Part shown: one piece after another, positions 10,045 to 63,068 of the stretch
Layout: each line of letters begins with the position of its first letter
Position numbering within the stretch: position 1 is the stretch's first letter
Assembly (NCBI RefSeq): GCF_006345805.1
Contig: NC_043002.1
Location: forward strand, 85,932,001-85,996,000
DNA length: 64,000 nucleotides
Direction: 5' to 3'
From: Octopus sinensis
Lineage: Eukaryota
Position numbers and translations under genes: made by a program
Notes under the pieces: model-generated
The model's database searches: none
What the model saw: only the letters and a program-made list of their open reading frames with translations
Told to the model about the DNA's origin: nothing

Positions 10045-10058
10045 GTCTCTATGGTAAC
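10045..10058 (+). promoter_or_regulatory. RFX X-box of the tektin-1 promoter
   Basis: GTCTCTATGGTAAC is a perfect match to the X-box consensus GTHNYY-AT-RRNAAC and ends 38 bp upstream of the tektin ATG. A CCAAT box lies at 9983-9987. Confidence 0.8.
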
Positions 10059-10095
10059 CGTACTAAAAGTAACATCAAACTTTGCGACGGCAGCA

Positions 10096-10112
10096 ATGGA
10101 TAACGACTTTAG
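10096..10112 (+). CDS. TEKT1: Tektin-1 exon 1 (MDNDFR)
   Basis: gcaATG GAT AAC GAC TTT AG|GTAAAA. Phase 2 matches the exon 2 acceptor, and the exon lies directly downstream of the X-box. Confidence 0.75.
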
Positions 10113-10280
10113 GTAAAATGAATGAGTTTTTCTAAATTTTTACCACTAGAGTTGCAAAAGAACGAAATTTAATATAAATATATATGTATGTATGTATGCA
10201 TGTATGTGTGTTTATATGTATGTATGTGTATTTATTGACTGCTATTTCCAGTAAACATCGGTACCTTGTTGTACCGCTAG

Positions 10281-10326
<46 letters not shown>

Positions 10327-10327
<1 letters not shown>

Positions 10328-10816
10328 GTTTAAATATTTGTTGTGCAAGATTTTTTATGTGAAGTCGTGTGTTGAAACAGATATTGTTATATTTCGGAAT
10401 GGTCATATTGCCAGTTTAGCCAATAAAAACACACGCACTATATATTTGGTGTTATTTTGCTTCAGTGATATTTATTTTTTACATTAATCTTAATCTTATT
10501 TCGGCCAAAGTTCTTTCGTCACACTCCTGTGACCGCATCAGTGGTCCTTTGTTTTCTTCTCACTTACTTGTGTCTCTCCTTACTAACCGTCAGCCATTTT
10601 ATATAAAATGGCTGACGGTTAGTAAGGAGAGACACAAGTAAGTGAGAAGAAAACAAAGGACCACTGATGCGGTCACAGGAGTGTGACGAAAGAACTTTGG
10701 CCGAAATAAGATTAAGATTAATGTAAAAAATAAATATCACTGAAGCAAAATAACACCAAATATATAGTGCGTGTGTTTTTATTGGCTAAACTGGCAATAT
10801 GACCATTCCGAAATAT

Positions 10817-10824
<8 letters not shown>
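10327..10824. mobile_element. Fold-back palindromic element in a (TA)n array; Penelope-like pLTR-derived, copy 1
   Basis: Perfect 222-bp arms at 10381-10824 centred on 10602/10603, plus a one-sided tail at 10327-10380, flanked by (TA)n. The arm is identical to those at 61816-62869. Confidence 0.75.
10658..10702 (+). ncRNA. Hammerhead-ribozyme-like fold with a variant core; mirror copy at 10503-10547(-), further copies at 61938-61982(-) and 62703-62747(+)
   Basis: GG-A-CCA CUGAUGC-G GUCAC aggagu GUGAC GAAA gaac UU UGGCC. Stem I and stem II pair; the core has A9 changed to C. Confidence 0.45.
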
Positions 10825-10854
<30 letters not shown>

Positions 10855-11174
10855 ACATCATCATCATCATTTAGCGTCCGCTTTCCATGCTAGCATGGGT
10901 TGGACGGTTCAACTGGGGTCTGTGAAGCCAGAAGGCTGCATCAGGCCCAGTCTGATCTGGCAGTGTTTCTACTATATATATACTCTTTTACTTGTTTCAG
11001 TCATTTGACTGTGGCCATGCTGGAGCACCGCCTTTAGTCGAGCAAATCGACCCCAGGACTTATTCTTTGTAAGCCTAGTACTTATTCTATCGGTTTCTTT
11101 TGCCGAACCACTATGTTACGGGGACGTAAACACACTAGCATCGGTTGTCAAGCAATGTTGGGGGACAAACACAG

Positions 11175-11231
<57 letters not shown>

Positions 11232-12301
11232 ACAATTTAATAAATAAAACATATGCATACATACATACATAAATGTCCATACCTACATCTATATGTATAT
11301 ATACATGCATATATGAGTACAGGACACCACAAATAAACGTAGAACACAATGAGAAACGCAAACATAAAAACAAAACAAGGAAACGGACTTTTTTTAACAA
11401 CAAAAAAAACAGAGTACAAGCCAAACAACAGAGGGAACATTCCCCTTCTTCAGCTGCCCCTGTTTCGATTCATTGCGTGTTTCAAAGGTAAGGGCAGTAA
11501 CACGACCACACCGAAGCTGTCCTTCCCGCAAAATAAATTAAATAAAATTTTTTTTTGCGGAGGGGTAAAAGAAGGTGACAAGAACAGGATGTAAAAGCAA
11601 TACAAATAAAGATAAAAACAGTAAAAGACAGGACAAGGAAACCAACAATAAGGGCTTTTATATACATGTATACGACGGACTTCTTTCAGTTTCCATCCAC
11701 CAAATTCACTCACCAGGCTTTGGTTGGCCCGAGGCTATAGTAGAAGACACTTGCCCAAGTTGCCATGCAGTGGGACTGAACCCAGAACCATGTGGTTGGT
11801 AAGCGAGCTACTTACCACACAGCCACTCTGCTTTATTAAAAAGTACCAAAAATATAGCAAAAACTGTTACTCGGTGTTTCCCGTTCATCGGACAGTTTTG
11901 TCTAGAACCTAAAGCAGTTTGCTTACCAACCACATGGTTCCAGATTCAGTCCCAATGCATGGCACCTTGGGCAAGTGTCTCCTACTATAGCCTCGGACCG
12001 ACCAAAGCCTTGTGAGTGGATCTGGTTGACGGAAACTGAAAGAAGCCCGTCATATAAATATATGTGTGTGTGTGTCTGTGTCTGTGTTTGTTCCCCAAAC
12101 ATTGCTTGACAACTGATGCTGATGTGTTTACATCTGCGTAACTTAGCAGTTCGGCAAAGTGACTGATAGAATAAGCACTAGGCTTACAAAGAATAAGTTC
12201 TGGGGCTGATTTGTTCGACTAATGGCGGTGCTCCAGCATGGCCGCAGTCAATTAACTGAAACAAATAAAAGAAAGAATGAAACAATACACACACACACAC
12301 A

Positions 12302-12539
12302 CAGAGGTTTGGCCAAAAGTCACACGACAGTAAATCAAAATTCCATAAATACTATCTGTAATTCTGTATTGACTTGAATGCAAAAATGTGTTGCTCAAGA
12401 AGGACTTCTGTTTGAACAATTTTCATGATGTTTCATATTTAGATGGTTTTATTAAATTTATTCAATTGTTAAAAATAAATAAATTTGGGAATAAAATGGT
12501 TTTGATTTACTACTGTCTGGTGACTTTTGGCTAAACCTG
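12302..12539. mobile_element. Tc1/mariner-type MITE; a second copy lies at 53263-53511
   Basis: TIRs cagaggtttggccaaaagtcac / gtgacttttggctaaacctg, followed by TA. Confidence 0.75.
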
Positions 12540-12579
12540 TAAGTATGCATGCATGCATGCATGTATGTATGTATGTCTT

Positions 12580-12960
12580 CCTTTGATTCTGACATGCAAT
12601 GTCTGTGCAAGACCCTGCCTCAGTAAAGCTGGACTCGTGAGTCATCTTCGTAGTCATAAAGCAAGACAGATGAGTGATAACCTGGCCACTAGTGGTGGTG
12701 TAACACACCATACTAATCATATCTGTTGGGCATGTGGAAGAGAGTGTAATTTGGCAGGAGGACTTAAACGACATACAAAGGTACATGAAGCCCAGTAACA
12801 ACTACAGCCGGCTATTACCAGTAAAGGTTTTAGTTACCAATTTTGTACAAGACATTGTAGATCTTTAGCTGGGCTAAAAAGTCACATTCGATCACAGCAC
12901 CAGTAACAGTTAAGCTTCGTGCAATGGCCATACTCGATAACGAGGGGGCAGCCATAATGT
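12580..12960 (+). mobile_element. 3' end of an RTE-type LINE with two C2H2-like zinc knuckles
   Basis: CNVCARPCLSKAGLVSHLRSH and CWACGRECNLAGGLKRHTKVH, ending in a microsatellite tail. Confidence 0.65.
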
Positions 12961-12967
12961 ATGTATG

Positions 12968-13007
<40 letters not shown>

Positions 13008-13441
13008 CAGAAAAAAATTTGTATGTATATATATATATATATATACACACATACAGAAAAAATTTCTGACATGATTCTAAAATAAGAATAATGAACATTT
13101 GTCACATTTACATACAAGAAATAACAAATATGAAGATGTTATGGCAAAGTGTTATTTTACTGGTGCATGACTTTTGCATTACTGTATATTCTGTGTAATC
13201 AGTAGAAATGAAAACAAATCTATTTTTTATTCAAAATCCAGAATTCTCCCAAAAGGCTGCACTTAAGAGCATCAGAGGTGTCATGCACATGGCTTCTAGC
13301 CATAGATTTCTTATCTTTTTTTTTTTTTTGTCTTGTGCTATGCTTACCTTATAACCTACTTTGAATTTTAGCAATCTCAAATGTTTATCCTCTACGTTGT
13401 ATATTTCCTGCATCATGTTTAAACCATTTTTTCACTGCCAG

Positions 13442-13807: not shown

Positions 13808-15032
13808 CAGGGGTTGGACAAAATAATGTAAACACCTAGCATCATAGTATCATAATTTTGAAATATCTATAAAAGCATTGATTTATTATTAGTGTTGCTT
13901 AATGTTTTGCTAACAATTGATGTTTCTTTTCAGATATCATCAGAAAAAGGTAATTAAAATTCATTAAAATGACATATCTATCGGACTTTCAAAGAGGTCA
14001 CATTGTTGGTGCTCGTATAACAGGCACTAGCATAATGAAAACAGCTGAAATGGTTGGTGTATCAAGAAGTACTGTCTTGAAAGTAATGACAGCCTTTGAG
14101 AAAGAGGGAAAAACCTCCTCGTTGAAACAAAATTTTGGAAGAAAACCAAAGCTTTCAGATAGTGACCATCGGACTCTTATGCGAATTGTTAGAAAGGATC
14201 ACTAAAGAACAGCTCCCAAAATTACTGCAGAGCATAATGACCACCTCAAGAACCCAGTTTCCATAAAAACTGCTTGCTGGGAGCTGTACAAAGCTAGATT
14301 TCACCAGAGGGCTGCAATCAGAAAACCACTACTTTTGAAAACAAATGTTGCAAAGCATTTAGAGTGGAGTAGAAACCTTCAGAATTGGTCTCTAGAGCAG
14401 TGGGAAAATGTTATTTTACCTTTTTTCCGACCACTGGCTGAGTATGCATGTGGAGACAGCCAAAAGAAGCATTTGACCCAGACTGCCTTCTTCCAATTGT
14501 TAAACATGGAGGAGGCTCTGTGATGACCTGGGGGACTATATCTTGGAAATCTGCCAGCCCAATGGTTTCCCTTCATGGCAGAATTAATAGTCTAGACTAT
14601 TTAGCATTTTATCTAATCAAATTCATTCTATGGTTACAGAAATGTTTCCAGAGGGAAATGCAATCTTTCAGGATGATAATGCACCAATTCACACAGCTAA
14701 AGTTGTTACTGAATGGCACAAGGAACATTCTAGTGACGTTGAACATCTTATCTGGCCACCACAGTCCCTAGATCTCAATATTAATGAGCATTTATGGTGC
14801 ATTTTAGAAAAACAAGTAAGGAGTCAATATCCTCTACAATCATCACTACAAGAACTGGAGACTGTTTTAGCTGAAGAATGGACAAAAATTCCTTTGGAAA
14901 TAATTCAAACTTTGTACAAGTCCATATGTCATAGAATTCAAGTTGTAATTACTGCCAAAGGCAGTCCTACCCCGTATTAAAATAAATTTGTTTGAAATCT
15001 TAAGGTGCTTCCATTATTTTGTCCAGCCCCTG
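13808..15032 (+). mobile_element. Full-length decayed Tc1-family DNA transposon (transposase pseudogene 13969-14980)
   Basis: TA-flanked TIRs caggggttggacaaaataatg / cattattttgtccagcccctg. HTH LSDFQRGHIVG...GRKPKLS, then VKHGGGSVMTWG, FQDDNAPIH and WPPQSLDLNINEHLW, with stops and frameshifts. Confidence 0.95.
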
Positions 15033-30622: not shown

Positions 30623-31139
30623 TTGTCCCCTCAACATCGCTTTACAACCGATGCTGGTGTATTTACGTCGCCGTCACTTAGCGGTTCGCCAAAAGAGACT
30701 GATAGAATAAGTACTGGGCTTACAAAGAATAAGTCCTGGGGTCGATTTGCTTGACTAAAGACAGTGCTCCAGCATGGTCGCAGTCAAATGACTGAAACAA
30801 GTAAAAGAGTAAAGAGTGTATGGTAGGTGTGTGAGACCGAATCTAGTCAGTTTGAATATAAAACATGTAGAATATTTGGGCTGAATATGCCTAAATGGTT
30901 TAAATGCTAAAGGGTTAACCCTTTAGCATTTAAACCGGCCATATCCGGCCAAAAGTATTCTGCCTGTTTTATGTTCAAACTGGCCAGATCTGGCCTCTCA
31001 CACCAACCCTACAATGTCGTTTTAAAAATTAACAGCTACCTCATCAAAATCTCATAGCTACAAGATAATGCATGATTAGTTCAAAACAATGAGGACGAAA
31101 AAGCTTTAATTATGGCAGAATAATGTGAACACTAAAGGG
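29968..31139. mobile_element. Two abutting piggyBac-like MITEs sharing one TTAA (30915-30918); the left one carries two nested SINEs
   Basis: TTAA-ccctttagc...ctaaaggg-TTAA termini. Further copies lie at ~1051, 21461-21677, 48388, 50218 and 60946-61155. Confidence 0.8.
30048..30345 (+). mobile_element. tRNA-derived SINE, family C; a second copy lies at 33135-33332 (-)
   Basis: tggcccagtggttagggcagc (A box) ...ggtttcaattccc (B box) ...cacctaaagctccacgagg. Confidence 0.75.
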
Positions 31140-33375: not shown

Positions 33376-33932
33376 AATTGTCTGATTATGTATGTGTCTG
33401 CATTTTATTCAGAAAATACGAAATAAACACCCACAAAACCAAGTATATCATTATTAGCCGTCTCTCACTGAAGTTTTATTTGACATTTAATTTGATAGGT
33501 ACAGCAGTATTGTGTTTGGATTCATGTCTTAAAACTGTTCATGAGACTATTGGAAAATATAAACATTTCTCTTCTTCCAGTTATTTTACCTTTCTTCATT
33601 CTTTTTGATTTCTGAACTTGAGCCATTTTGTGTGTGTGTGTGTGTGTGCGTGTGTGTATGTGCATGCACACATGCATATGTGCGTCCACATATATGTATG
33701 AACTAATGAAAGAACTAATTGAAGAGCTTCTACATGATATCTTGACCTGAATGAAACAGCAATTAAATCTCCTTCAAAGAATATATATATATGCCTGAGC
33801 CAACTAGGGAGTCACTAGTTGTCTTCTATCTATATGGTCCCATCAATTACTATATCTAAGCATTGAATCTTTTACTCTCTGGGAGCTCTTGACGTTTATA
33901 CTCCATCTAATTGAGGGTCTATTTACTTCCAG

Positions 33933-34289
33933 GTACATCAACAGATTTTGGAACTCGAAGAAAACATAAGCAGGTTGTTGATTGCTATAGCTGACAAGGA
34001 GCAGCCACTTAAGTTAGCTGAAACCCGTCTTGAAAAACGAGACTTCCGTCCTAACGTTGAGCTCTGTCGTGACCAAGTACAGTACAGACTGATTAAAGAG
34101 GTCCATGAACTGCGGCTCTCTATTAAAGAACTACAGAACTGTCTCTATGAATCAAACTGCACCATGAAGAAATTGCTTCAAAACCAGCGCGACTTGGAAG
34201 CAGATATTGATGTTAAAGCCAAATCATTGTTCATAGATGAGGTGGAGTGTATGGGCTTGAGGAAAAGCATTAACATTCAAGCATATTAA
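33933..34289 (+). CDS. TEKT1: Tektin-1 exon 7 (terminal)
   Basis: ccag|GTA CAT... Contains the tektin signature RPNVELCRD and the stop TAA ending at 34289. The spliced CDS totals 1218 nt (405 aa plus stop) in one open frame. A candidate AATAAA lies at ~34746. Confidence 0.96.
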   Translation, partial: VHQQILELEENISRLLIAIADKEQPLKLAETRLEKRDFRPNVELCRDQVQYRLIKEVHELRLSIKELQNCLYESNCTMKKLLQNQRDLEADIDVKAKSLFIDEVECMGLRKSINIQAY

Positions 34290-44395: not shown

Positions 44396-45661
44396 TCAAG
44401 TCATCCCATAAGTCCTGTCCGAATTTTGAATAAAGGAAACAAGTGATCAAATGTTATATTTAATTGAAATTTAATCATCAGTGTACTTTTCCTGATTATC
44501 TATGACTTCCTTCCATCTATTTACAAGCTTTTTAATCCCATCAATGTAAAACTTTTGGTTTCAAAGCGAAGAACTCTGAAATGTCAGTTTCAACCTCCTC
44601 CTGGCTTACGAAAGTTATGCCCCTCCCCCTACCAAATTATTCTGTAAACGACAAAACAAATGGTAGTCTGAAGGAGCAAGGTCGGGAGAATAAGGTGGAT
44701 GAGGAATTTTTTCCCAACCAAGCTCTTTGATCTTCTGTGATGTGATCTTTGCAGTGTGGGGTTGCGCATCATCCTGATGAAACATCACTCCTTTTCGATT
44801 CACTAAAGCAGGTCTTTTTTTCTTCAAAGCTTGGATCAAATGCTCTAATTGCTGACAGTAGACTTGAGCATTAATTGTTGCATTAAGTGGTAACAATTCA
44901 AAGTGAATTACTCCTTTGCAATCCCATCAGATAGAGAGAAGAACCTTTTTCCCATGAAGTTCCCTTCTCGGTTGTGGTTGAGCTTTTTCCCTTTTACCAA
45001 GCCACTGTTTACAACATTTAACATTTCAATAGAAGATCCATTTTTCATCACCAGTAACAAGTCTATCCAAAAAGGGTGAAATGAGTTCACGACAATGGAG
45101 AGAAGAGCAGATGTCAACTCGGGATTTGCAGTTGCTTTGGGACAATTCATGAGGCACCCATTTTCCAAGTTTAGGAACCATTCCAAGTTGTTGAAGATGA
45201 CAATGAACAGTTGTATGGTTTGAACTAAGCTTTATTGCCAATTCTTCAACTGATAATGCAGGATTTTCTTCAAGTAATGCCTCAAGGAGCTTATCATCAA
45301 ACTCAAATGGACGTCCTGTTCGACCTTTATCTTCAAGACTAAAATCTCCACTTCTGAATATTGCAAACCATTTTCTGCAAGTTTTTCCATTCAAGTATTC
45401 TTTCCTATAAACTGAGTGTATGTTTCGAGTTGCTTCGGCTGCAGAGTTATGCCTCAAATGCTCTTTGGATACTTCCATGTTAGAAAGGGTTTTAATCAAA
45501 GGAATTTTATTTCTATTATTCTGTAAAATAATATTTAATTAGTTTCAATGTACACAAATGCATAAAAATAATTTTTAATTCCATTAGACATTCTAAAATA
45601 CTATTAAATTTCATTCAATTTTAAAAAGGTAAAATCGGACAGAACTTATGGGATGACCTGA
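44396..45661 (-). mobile_element. Full-length decayed mariner (DD34D) transposon
   Basis: TA-flanked TIRs tcargtcatcccataagtyctgtccga. Motifs WVPHEL, VTGDEKWIFY, HQDDAQPH and PHPPYSPDLAPSDYHLF, with frameshifts. Confidence 0.95.
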
Positions 45662-61815: not shown

Positions 61816-62296
61816 ATATTGTTATATTTCGGAATGGTCATATTGCCAGTTTAGCCAATAAAAACACACGCACTATATATTTGGTGTTATTTTGCTTCAG
61901 TGATATTTATTTTTTACATTAATCTTAATCTTATTTCGGCCAAAGTTCTTTCGTCACACTCCTGTGACCGCATCAGTGGTCCTTTGTTTTCTTCTCACTT
62001 ACTTGTGTCTCTCCTTACTAACCGTCAGCCATTTTGTATTTCTATTGTATGTCTTCATTTACGCATGCTTATATCTCTATGTGCGTCTGTGTTTATTTAG
62101 TGTGTGTGTGGGGGGGGTGCCTGTAATATTTGTATCTTCTGGTTATATACATTCTTGTAATTTGTATTTTGTTTTTGTTGTTGTTGCTTTTGTTCTAATT
62201 TTGTTCATGTGTTTACATCCACCCATTATTATCATTACATATGCTTGTATGTATGTGTAACAACAATATTAGTAATAATAATAATAAATCTAATTG

Positions 62297-62386
<90 letters not shown>

Positions 62387-62924
62387 TTTCAATTAGATTT
62401 ATTATTATTATTACTAATATTGTTGTTATACATACATACAAGCATATGTAATGATAATAATGGGTGGATGTAAACACATGAACAAAATTAGAACAAAAGC
62501 AATAACAAAAACAAAATACAAATTACAAGAATGTATATAACCAGAAGATACAAATATTACAGGCACCCCCCCCACACACACACACTAAATAAACATAGAC
62601 GCACATAGAGATATAAGCATGCGTAAATGAAGACATACAATAGAAATACAAAATGGCTGACGGTTAGTAAGGAGAGACACAAGTAAGTGAGAAGAAAACA
62701 AAGGACCACTGATGCGGTCACAGGAGTGTGACGAAAGAACTTTGGCCGAAATAAGATTAAGATTAATGTAAAAAATAAATATCACTGAAGCAAAATAACA
62801 CCAAATATATAGTGCGTGTGTTTTTATTGGCTAAACTGGCAATATGACCATTCCGAAATATAACAATATCTGTTTCAACACACGACTTCACATAAAAAAT
62901 CTTGCACAACAATATTTAAACGTA
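61816..62924. mobile_element. Fold-back palindromic element in a (TA)n array, copy 2 (longer arms, opposite orientation)
   Basis: ~490-bp arms joined by A-tract-(TA)n-T-tract, with a one-sided tail at 62870-62924. The outer 220 bp are identical to copy 1. Confidence 0.78.
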
Positions 62925-63068
62925 CATATATATATATAATATATATATATATATGTATACATGTATATGTACTTATATATATATATATATATAGATGTAT
63001 ATGTATATATATATATAGATGTATATGTATATATATATATATGTATACATGTATATGTAGATATATGT

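Follow-up and report, generated by a model that had tools for sequence, protein, structure and literature searches.

A hammerhead-like RNA motif in the genome of Octopus sinensis is probably the pseudo-LTR (pLTR) hammerhead of a Penelope-like element (PLE) family, weakened by a change of A to C at core position 9 (A9C) and carried along by its element, and the palindrome around it is then an integration product that buries the motif. We analysed a window of 64,000 nucleotides (contig NC_043002.1, positions 85,932,001 to 85,996,000), which holds two loci of this family, here called locus 1 and locus 2.

The hammerhead-like motif and its core alleles

The motif at 10658..10702 on the plus strand, recognized by sequence, folding and a descriptor match, has the order of a minimal type I hammerhead: the 5′ strand of stem I, CUGAUG-C-G, stem II, GAAA, a short stem III, a UH site and the 3′ strand of stem I, all reading outward from the palindrome centre. 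Stem I (10658-10663/10698-10702) comprises 3 bp, a bulged A and 2 bp; stem II (10672-10677/10682-10687) comprises 6 bp, GUCACA/UGUGAC, with a GGAG loop; GAAA lies at 10688-10691, stem III pairs 10691-10692 with 10695-10696, and the predicted cut falls after U10697. The original prediction had proposed this layout and this cleavage position, and both hold, with two corrections: stem II had been given as 5 bp, and stem III had been called non-palindromic, whereas AG-AA-CU is quasi-palindromic. Written with its core numbering, A15.1-G-AA-C-U16.1, stem III has self-complementary outer pairs, A-U and G-C, around a mismatching AA, and intermolecular pairing is possible.

A mirror copy in the left arm (10503..10547, minus strand) forms a perfect antisense on the plus-strand transcript, 110 nt upstream of the sense copy, and further identical copies lie at locus 2 (61938-61982, minus; 62703-62747, plus), so that 4 of 4 motif copies in the window are identical in sequence. 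Searched with a relaxed descriptor of the minimal hammerhead, which leaves position 9 free, permits an extra base, pairs 15.2-16.2 and asks for at least 5 bp in stem II and 3 bp in stem I, the window gave exactly these four copies and 300 dinucleotide shuffles gave nothing; the descriptor was composed after the motif was known, and its four matches are one sequence. Fold stability is ordinary (z = -1.16; 24 of 200 shuffles equally stable). The covariance-model check that had been proposed gave no Rfam hammerhead match at E ≤ 1 across the whole window or at E ≤ 10 on 10625-10760, with models that may miss the whole minimal-hammerhead kind. Rfam miRNA matches were rejected, as they correspond to the hairpin and to microsatellites and all lie below gathering scores. 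Pattern scans for the motif in metagenome, viral and prokaryote collections returned 0 matches in each.

Set against the consensus hammerhead core as defined in PMC3088659, the motif has C3 U4 G5 A6 N7 G8, G12 A13 A14 A15.1 and U16.1 H17 (C3 is 10664), and departs from it at A9: position 9 (10670) is C in 4 of 4 window copies. An additional G follows at 10671, giving two bases (C, G) between G8 and G10.1, that is, A9C plus an extra base. The deviation at position 9 had been predicted; the extra base, usual in PLE minimal hammerheads, is an addition to that description. The minimal hammerheads of metazoan PLE pLTRs (PMC4209133; Cervera and de la Pena 2014) resemble the octopus motif in their type I order, short helix I (about 3-5 bp), helix II of about 6-8 bp, here 6 bp, that opens with G10.1-C11.1, extra base between positions 9 and 10.1, paired 15.2-16.2, tiny self-pairing helix III and predicted need for a dimer. 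In helix lengths, extra base and G10.1-C11.1, the assignment to PLE-type minimal hammerheads made in the original prediction is borne out. By contrast, the motif reads CUGAUGCG and does not fit their consensus CUGANGAH: it has C at position 9, where 56 of 56 motifs listed in PMC4209133 have A, its extra base is G, found in 1 of the 56 (Nasonia), and its loop III is AA, which would give a dimer helix with two A-A mismatches.

The sheared pair between G12 and A9 has three hydrogen bonds, including one to N7 of A9 (PMC2553840). From this geometry, C at position 9 would be unable to supply the N7 bond to G12, and A9C would abolish a pair that helps to position the general base. A9 substitutions slow minimal hammerheads, and on structure and such mutagenesis we predict that the C9 motif cuts weakly or not at all; our literature search found no measured cleavage rate for A9C. 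In one reconstituted PLE, hammerhead-dead mutants insert normally in vitro and cutting needs protein (PMC11167929). The ancestral core would have had A9, now a minority allele, and the family would have spread despite A9C because insertion does not need cutting.

Family variation was read from contigs of 4 of 20 matching sequencing runs (X1, X3, X4 and X13; three organisms, three studies), placed on 62370-62935 at 80% identity. The 16202, 6858, 6415 and 1423 contig pieces placed from X1, X3, X4 and X13 indicate a highly repeated family, depth not being copy number. At position 9, C>A accounts for 18, 28, 16 and 11% of depth in the same order, with C9 the majority in 4 of 4 data sets, and at position 17, U>C accounts for 65, 89, 91 and 91%, making U17 of the window the minority form; these shares from contig depth are a rough measure, taken on a reference that carries C9 and with older A9 copies below 80% identity liable to be missed. 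Since a non-reference base dominates at position 17, reference bias does not, we argue, explain the C9 majority. By contig depth, the usual family form is C9 with canonical C17, and A9 persists as a minority.

C9>A and U17>C are the only core changes among those listed for the motif, each towards the textbook hammerhead. A loop II change (4-11% of depth) and the last stem I base (0.1-3.5%) make up the others, and the listed changes spare both arms of stem II as well as CUGAUG/GAAA, a pattern that selection on the fold might explain. The original prediction was to fall if neither cleavage nor covariation or conservation of stems I and II were found, and one half of that outcome is what the family returned: among the listed changes in the four data sets, which hold little variation, there is no compensatory pair in the stems, and constrained motif positions vary no less than other parts of the element do (3 of 36 versus 24 of 265 listed sites; Fisher p = 1), in a conservation test that is weak for so young a family.

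Could the C9 variant work? Sense transcripts would then be cut as a swapped dimer or in protein-bound form, the extra G perhaps taking position 9, and selection would keep the motif; the octopus PLE family would have reached its very high copy number on a C9 core that still cuts as a protein-assisted dimer. We consider this unlikely. The C9 majority in 4 of 4 data sets speaks for it, as do a calculated 47-80% or so of copies that combine C9 with canonical C17 if depth tracks copy frequency (the linkage not being seen directly), the lack of any listed variant that disrupts stem II or the remaining core, and the existence of natural core variants with low activity (PMC3088659). Folding, given here as equilibrium values with kinetics not simulated, cuts both ways. 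In the isolated 45-mer, stems I and II form with pair probabilities of 0.91-0.99 at -10.8 kcal/mol, and in sense-only RNA from the palindrome centre the probability of stem II stays near 0.88 and that of stem I ranges from 0.01 to 0.88 with length and context. Stem III, however, would need a 2-nt loop, and three-stem closure was not found within one molecule; at -19.0 kcal/mol, the swapped double hammerhead falls short of both two monomers (-21.6) and the best cofold (-25.0) in stability. Against a working C9 there also stand the lack of covariation and of excess conservation among the listed changes and the A9 of all 56 motifs in PMC4209133 and of 34 of 34 table rows in PMC8557442, collections whose descriptors demand A9. 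Under the favoured reading, a pLTR hammerhead weakened by A9C and carried along, any cutting would require sense-only transcripts, a second copy for a swapped stem III and probably the element's protein.

Anatomy of the two loci

Locus 1 is a perfect head-to-head palindrome (10381..10824) of 2 x 222 nt with no spacer, composed of two 5′-truncated element ends; its arms span 10381-10602 and 10603-10824 and meet at 10602/10603, with TTTTAT and ATAAAA on either side. The palindrome with a motif in each arm is as the original prediction described it. A 54-nt tail (10327..10380, minus strand) extends the left arm only, and (TA)n flanks the whole on the left (10299..10326) and right (10825..10852). 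Locus 2 has a left arm without tail (61816..62311, minus strand), which holds the motif copy at 61938-61982 and whose inner end is a 15-A run on the plus strand, a (TA)n centre (62312..62377) and a right arm (62378..62922, plus strand) of 545 nt, with a 12-T run, a non-coding body, the motif at 62703-62747, an ATG at 62844 and a 53-nt tail at 62870-62922. This right arm is the longest unit seen and contains no RT or endonuclease coding. At both loci, head-to-head pairs sit in (TA)n, the short arm stops at the same base and the long arm adds the 53-54-nt tail. The inner truncation is not the same at the two: locus 1 has its fold-back point at 10602/10603, and at locus 2 arms roughly 500 and 545 nt long are joined via A15-(TA)n-T12. 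Locus 1 is near-identical to its copy 52 kb away, which marks a recent insertion at locus 1 and not a conserved host element.

These features are those of PLE insertions. An inverted 5′-truncated pair, a junction palindrome and a tail on one arm are present in 2 of 2 loci, insertion is into (TA)n, and loose contig ends behind 62869 in X1 and X4 are likewise (TA)n. Endonuclease-bearing PLEs with inverted pLTRs (Penelope/Poseidon, Neptune, Hydra and Naiad; PMC3846280, PMC8557442) share the head-to-head 5′-truncated pair, palindromic junction and one-arm tail, the (TA)n target and a likely ORF start within pLTR plus tail; the head-to-head arrangement with tail is the PLE pattern drawn in PMC8557442, and inverted pLTRs, junction palindromes, the one-arm tail and first ORF codons in pLTR plus tail are described in PMC3846280. 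Unlike them, the octopus element has no RT or endonuclease in view, its tail is 53-54 nt and its longest unit (545 nt) starts with a T-run; the tail length, set against the 30-40 nt described for PLEs, counts against the PLE reading. Tails have been tied to two RT start sites, with both target strands nicked and extended (PMC11167929). Rather than a device assembled for a ribozyme, the palindrome would be a side product of PLE integration. It could arise from two cDNAs, initiated at the two 3′ start points of the element, whose truncated ends were then joined, or else by fold-back self-priming. The palindrome is ordinary PLE anatomy.

Downstream of the motif, an ATG (62844 at locus 2; 10406 on the minus strand at locus 1) opens 27 codons through the tail, the likely ORF start of the parent element (10326..10406, minus strand); the right arm of locus 1 contains only its first 26 nt (10799-10824). 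Ten family variants are listed in this frame, 7 at third positions and 6 synonymous (p = 0.02-0.03, for a frame spotted post hoc), a bias that fits a pLTR including an ORF start. The 27-codon frame is likely to be the start of the parent element's ORF. No RT or endonuclease (GIY-YIG) was found in the window ORFs of at least 110 aa, of which 8 of 38 were scanned in Pfam, and protein searches, including the atlas, returned no full-length parent protein: match P0089 is weak, a 79-aa read-through of a related repeat, with no longer relative found, and match P0088 was set aside as weak and spurious. The motif strings do not occur in the PLE consensus file in the supplement of PMC8557442. As neither an RT nor an endonuclease turned up in the window or in protein searches, PLE membership rests on anatomy, by which the arms are likely to be a PLE pLTR; the family is probably a young, very high-copy, non-autonomous octopus PLE.

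Several further observations concern the same stretches. At locus 2 (62283-62389) the two arms start with the same T-run, and the strand opposite the hammerhead reads AATAAA, 8 nt and A15; this end, covered in 4 of 4 sequencing data sets, resembles a polyadenylated antisense transcript and may mark one ending at the head-to-head junction, with a templated T-run as the alternative. The antisense-template idea of PMC3846280 would fit such an end. The two arms of locus 2 differ by three substitutions (62429, 62503 and 62596), each of them ACA>ATA on the right arm. At the centre of locus 1, 10601-10604 reads ATAT where the element has ATAC, giving both the fold-back point and a two-way TATA-like word. 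An AUG within the hammerhead core (62712-62771; 10667-10726) opens 19 codons in the frame of the downstream ATG; A9/C9 and C17/U17 are both synonymous in this frame, as are 7 of 14 upstream variants (p = 0.05). An ORF from the core AUG was dropped as a curiosity, three stop codons preceding the ATG at 62844. Loose contig ends at 62844, 62906 and 62912, many of which join the element at the ATG with different upstream DNA or continue past the tail in open frame, suggest sister families that share the ORF start, at low consensus agreement (0.5-0.66).

A foldback element outside the PLEs, MITE-like or other, in which the motif would be a hairpin arisen by chance, is very unlikely. The TA targets, the long inverted arms, a lack of coding region, the absence of an Rfam match and a z of only -1.16 are all compatible with one, but the descriptor found 0 matches in 300 shuffles, two common core polymorphisms both restore textbook bases, and arms unequal by a fixed tail, with an inner truncation that differs between loci, are unlike terminal inverted repeats.

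Predicted transcription through the tektin intron

Locus 1 lies in a host gene. An exon at 33930-34286 shares 99% identity with Octopus sinensis tektin-1-like, a protein that aligns to seven exons between 10051 and 34286. Its first coding exon (10051..10112, plus strand) is followed by intron 1 (10113-13441, GT..AG), which contains the palindrome; locus 1 lies 215 nt past the first splice donor, and locus 2 falls outside the coding span. The placement in a host pre-mRNA that had been predicted is supported by this NCBI protein model, from which transcription through locus 1 in tektin pre-mRNA would follow, and each transcript would contain one sense and one antisense copy, as predicted, given the mirror motif at 10503-10547 (minus). 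Upstream, 10045-10058 matches an RFX X-box consensus and overlaps the annotated tektin start codon; this consensus has 3 matches in the window versus 0.56 expected. An RFX X-box is expected at a ciliary gene. The same tektin intron holds, at 10984-12272, nested inverted copies of another common repeat with arms 87-89% complementary, a possible second source of dsRNA. Elsewhere in the window are DDE_3 and Mos1-type transposase fragments (14591-14980 and 45026-45538) and a perfect 40-nt palindrome (30897-30936).

With a head-to-head pair whose motifs read outward, transcription of either strand yields the antisense copy before the sense one. By equilibrium folding of read-through RNA that starts at 10330, the central helix is already in place once the prefix reaches 10620 (pair probability 0.99), ahead of the ribozyme's first base, and stem II has a probability of 1e-19 to 1e-20 in every read-through prefix that contains it; in the prefix ending at 10703 the hairpin reaches -225 kcal/mol versus -10.8 for stems I and II. 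Locus 2 behaves in the same way. The order of synthesis also favours hairpin over hammerhead. As the motif is unable to close stem III alone, a second sense copy is needed, and the next plus-strand copy is 52 kb off, past the last tektin coding exon and within its own hairpin. In read-through host RNA the motif is predicted to be buried in the 222-bp duplex, and the locus would behave as a dsRNA hairpin in the intron rather than as a ribozyme.

A co-transcriptional switch, as originally proposed, in which self-cleavage competes with hairpin formation in the pre-mRNA and regulates the host gene, is the least probable account and highly improbable in itself: it can point to the position 215 nt beyond the first tektin-1-like splice donor and to one sense and one antisense copy on each strand, but transcription always reaches the antisense arm first, nucleation of the helix precedes the motif (stem II probability 1e-19 or less), a dimer partner is lacking nearby, the core is weakened, a copy near-identical to one 52 kb away indicates recent insertion, and the layout is a common PLE insertion product. 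The effect on the host is likely to be that of long intronic dsRNA, not of a ribozyme switch.

Known hammerhead elements and the meaning of C9

Opposite-strand pairs of minimal hammerheads 100-700 bp apart, the extra base, the need for a dimer and low activity have already been described (PMC4209133), and PMC8557442 tabulates Penelope-13_HM as having an inverted copy and hammerheads on the two strands. Also from an octopus is Hydra-1_Obim, a Hydra-clade PLE of Octopus bimaculoides (PMC8557442), which shares the (TA)n target and an extra G after position 9; its hammerhead sequence is different, with A9 kept and a longer stem III. Non-LTR retrozymes (bioRxiv 10.64898/2026.07.22.740005) are likewise non-coding, hammerhead-bearing and likely PLE-derived, but they form head-to-tail tandem units with canonical type I hammerheads, whereas head-to-tail tandem units with complete hammerheads are absent from the window, where 2 of 2 loci are head-to-head.

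That hammerheads occur in opposite-strand pairs in PLEs has been published before; what is left is a core with A9C, predicted to be weak, that most members of a very successful family carry. Variants of PLE hammerheads are reportedly the subject of Lunse et al. 2017 (RNA Biol). A limited search of literature available in part returned no printed A9C hammerhead and none with CUGAUGC, a core that Lunse et al. may list. The available parts of PMC3088659 and PMC11014351 contain no A9C, and those of PMC9901934 cover C3-G8 and not A9.

The role of PLE hammerheads is stated to be an open question in PMC8557442, and here one family carries both the textbook core (A9) and a changed core (C9), with C9 in the majority. 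If C9 is dead, the family gives in vivo support for the in vitro finding that cutting is dispensable for insertion; if C9 is alive, the hammerhead consensus is widened. Should C9 cutting prove true, it would be a natural A9 substitution invisible to searches based on CUGANGA, counts of PLE hammerheads would be too low and the label 'hammerhead-less' would be wrong for some PLEs. Either way, A9/C9 and C17/U17 within one family form a ready allelic series on the role of the ribozyme in transposition.
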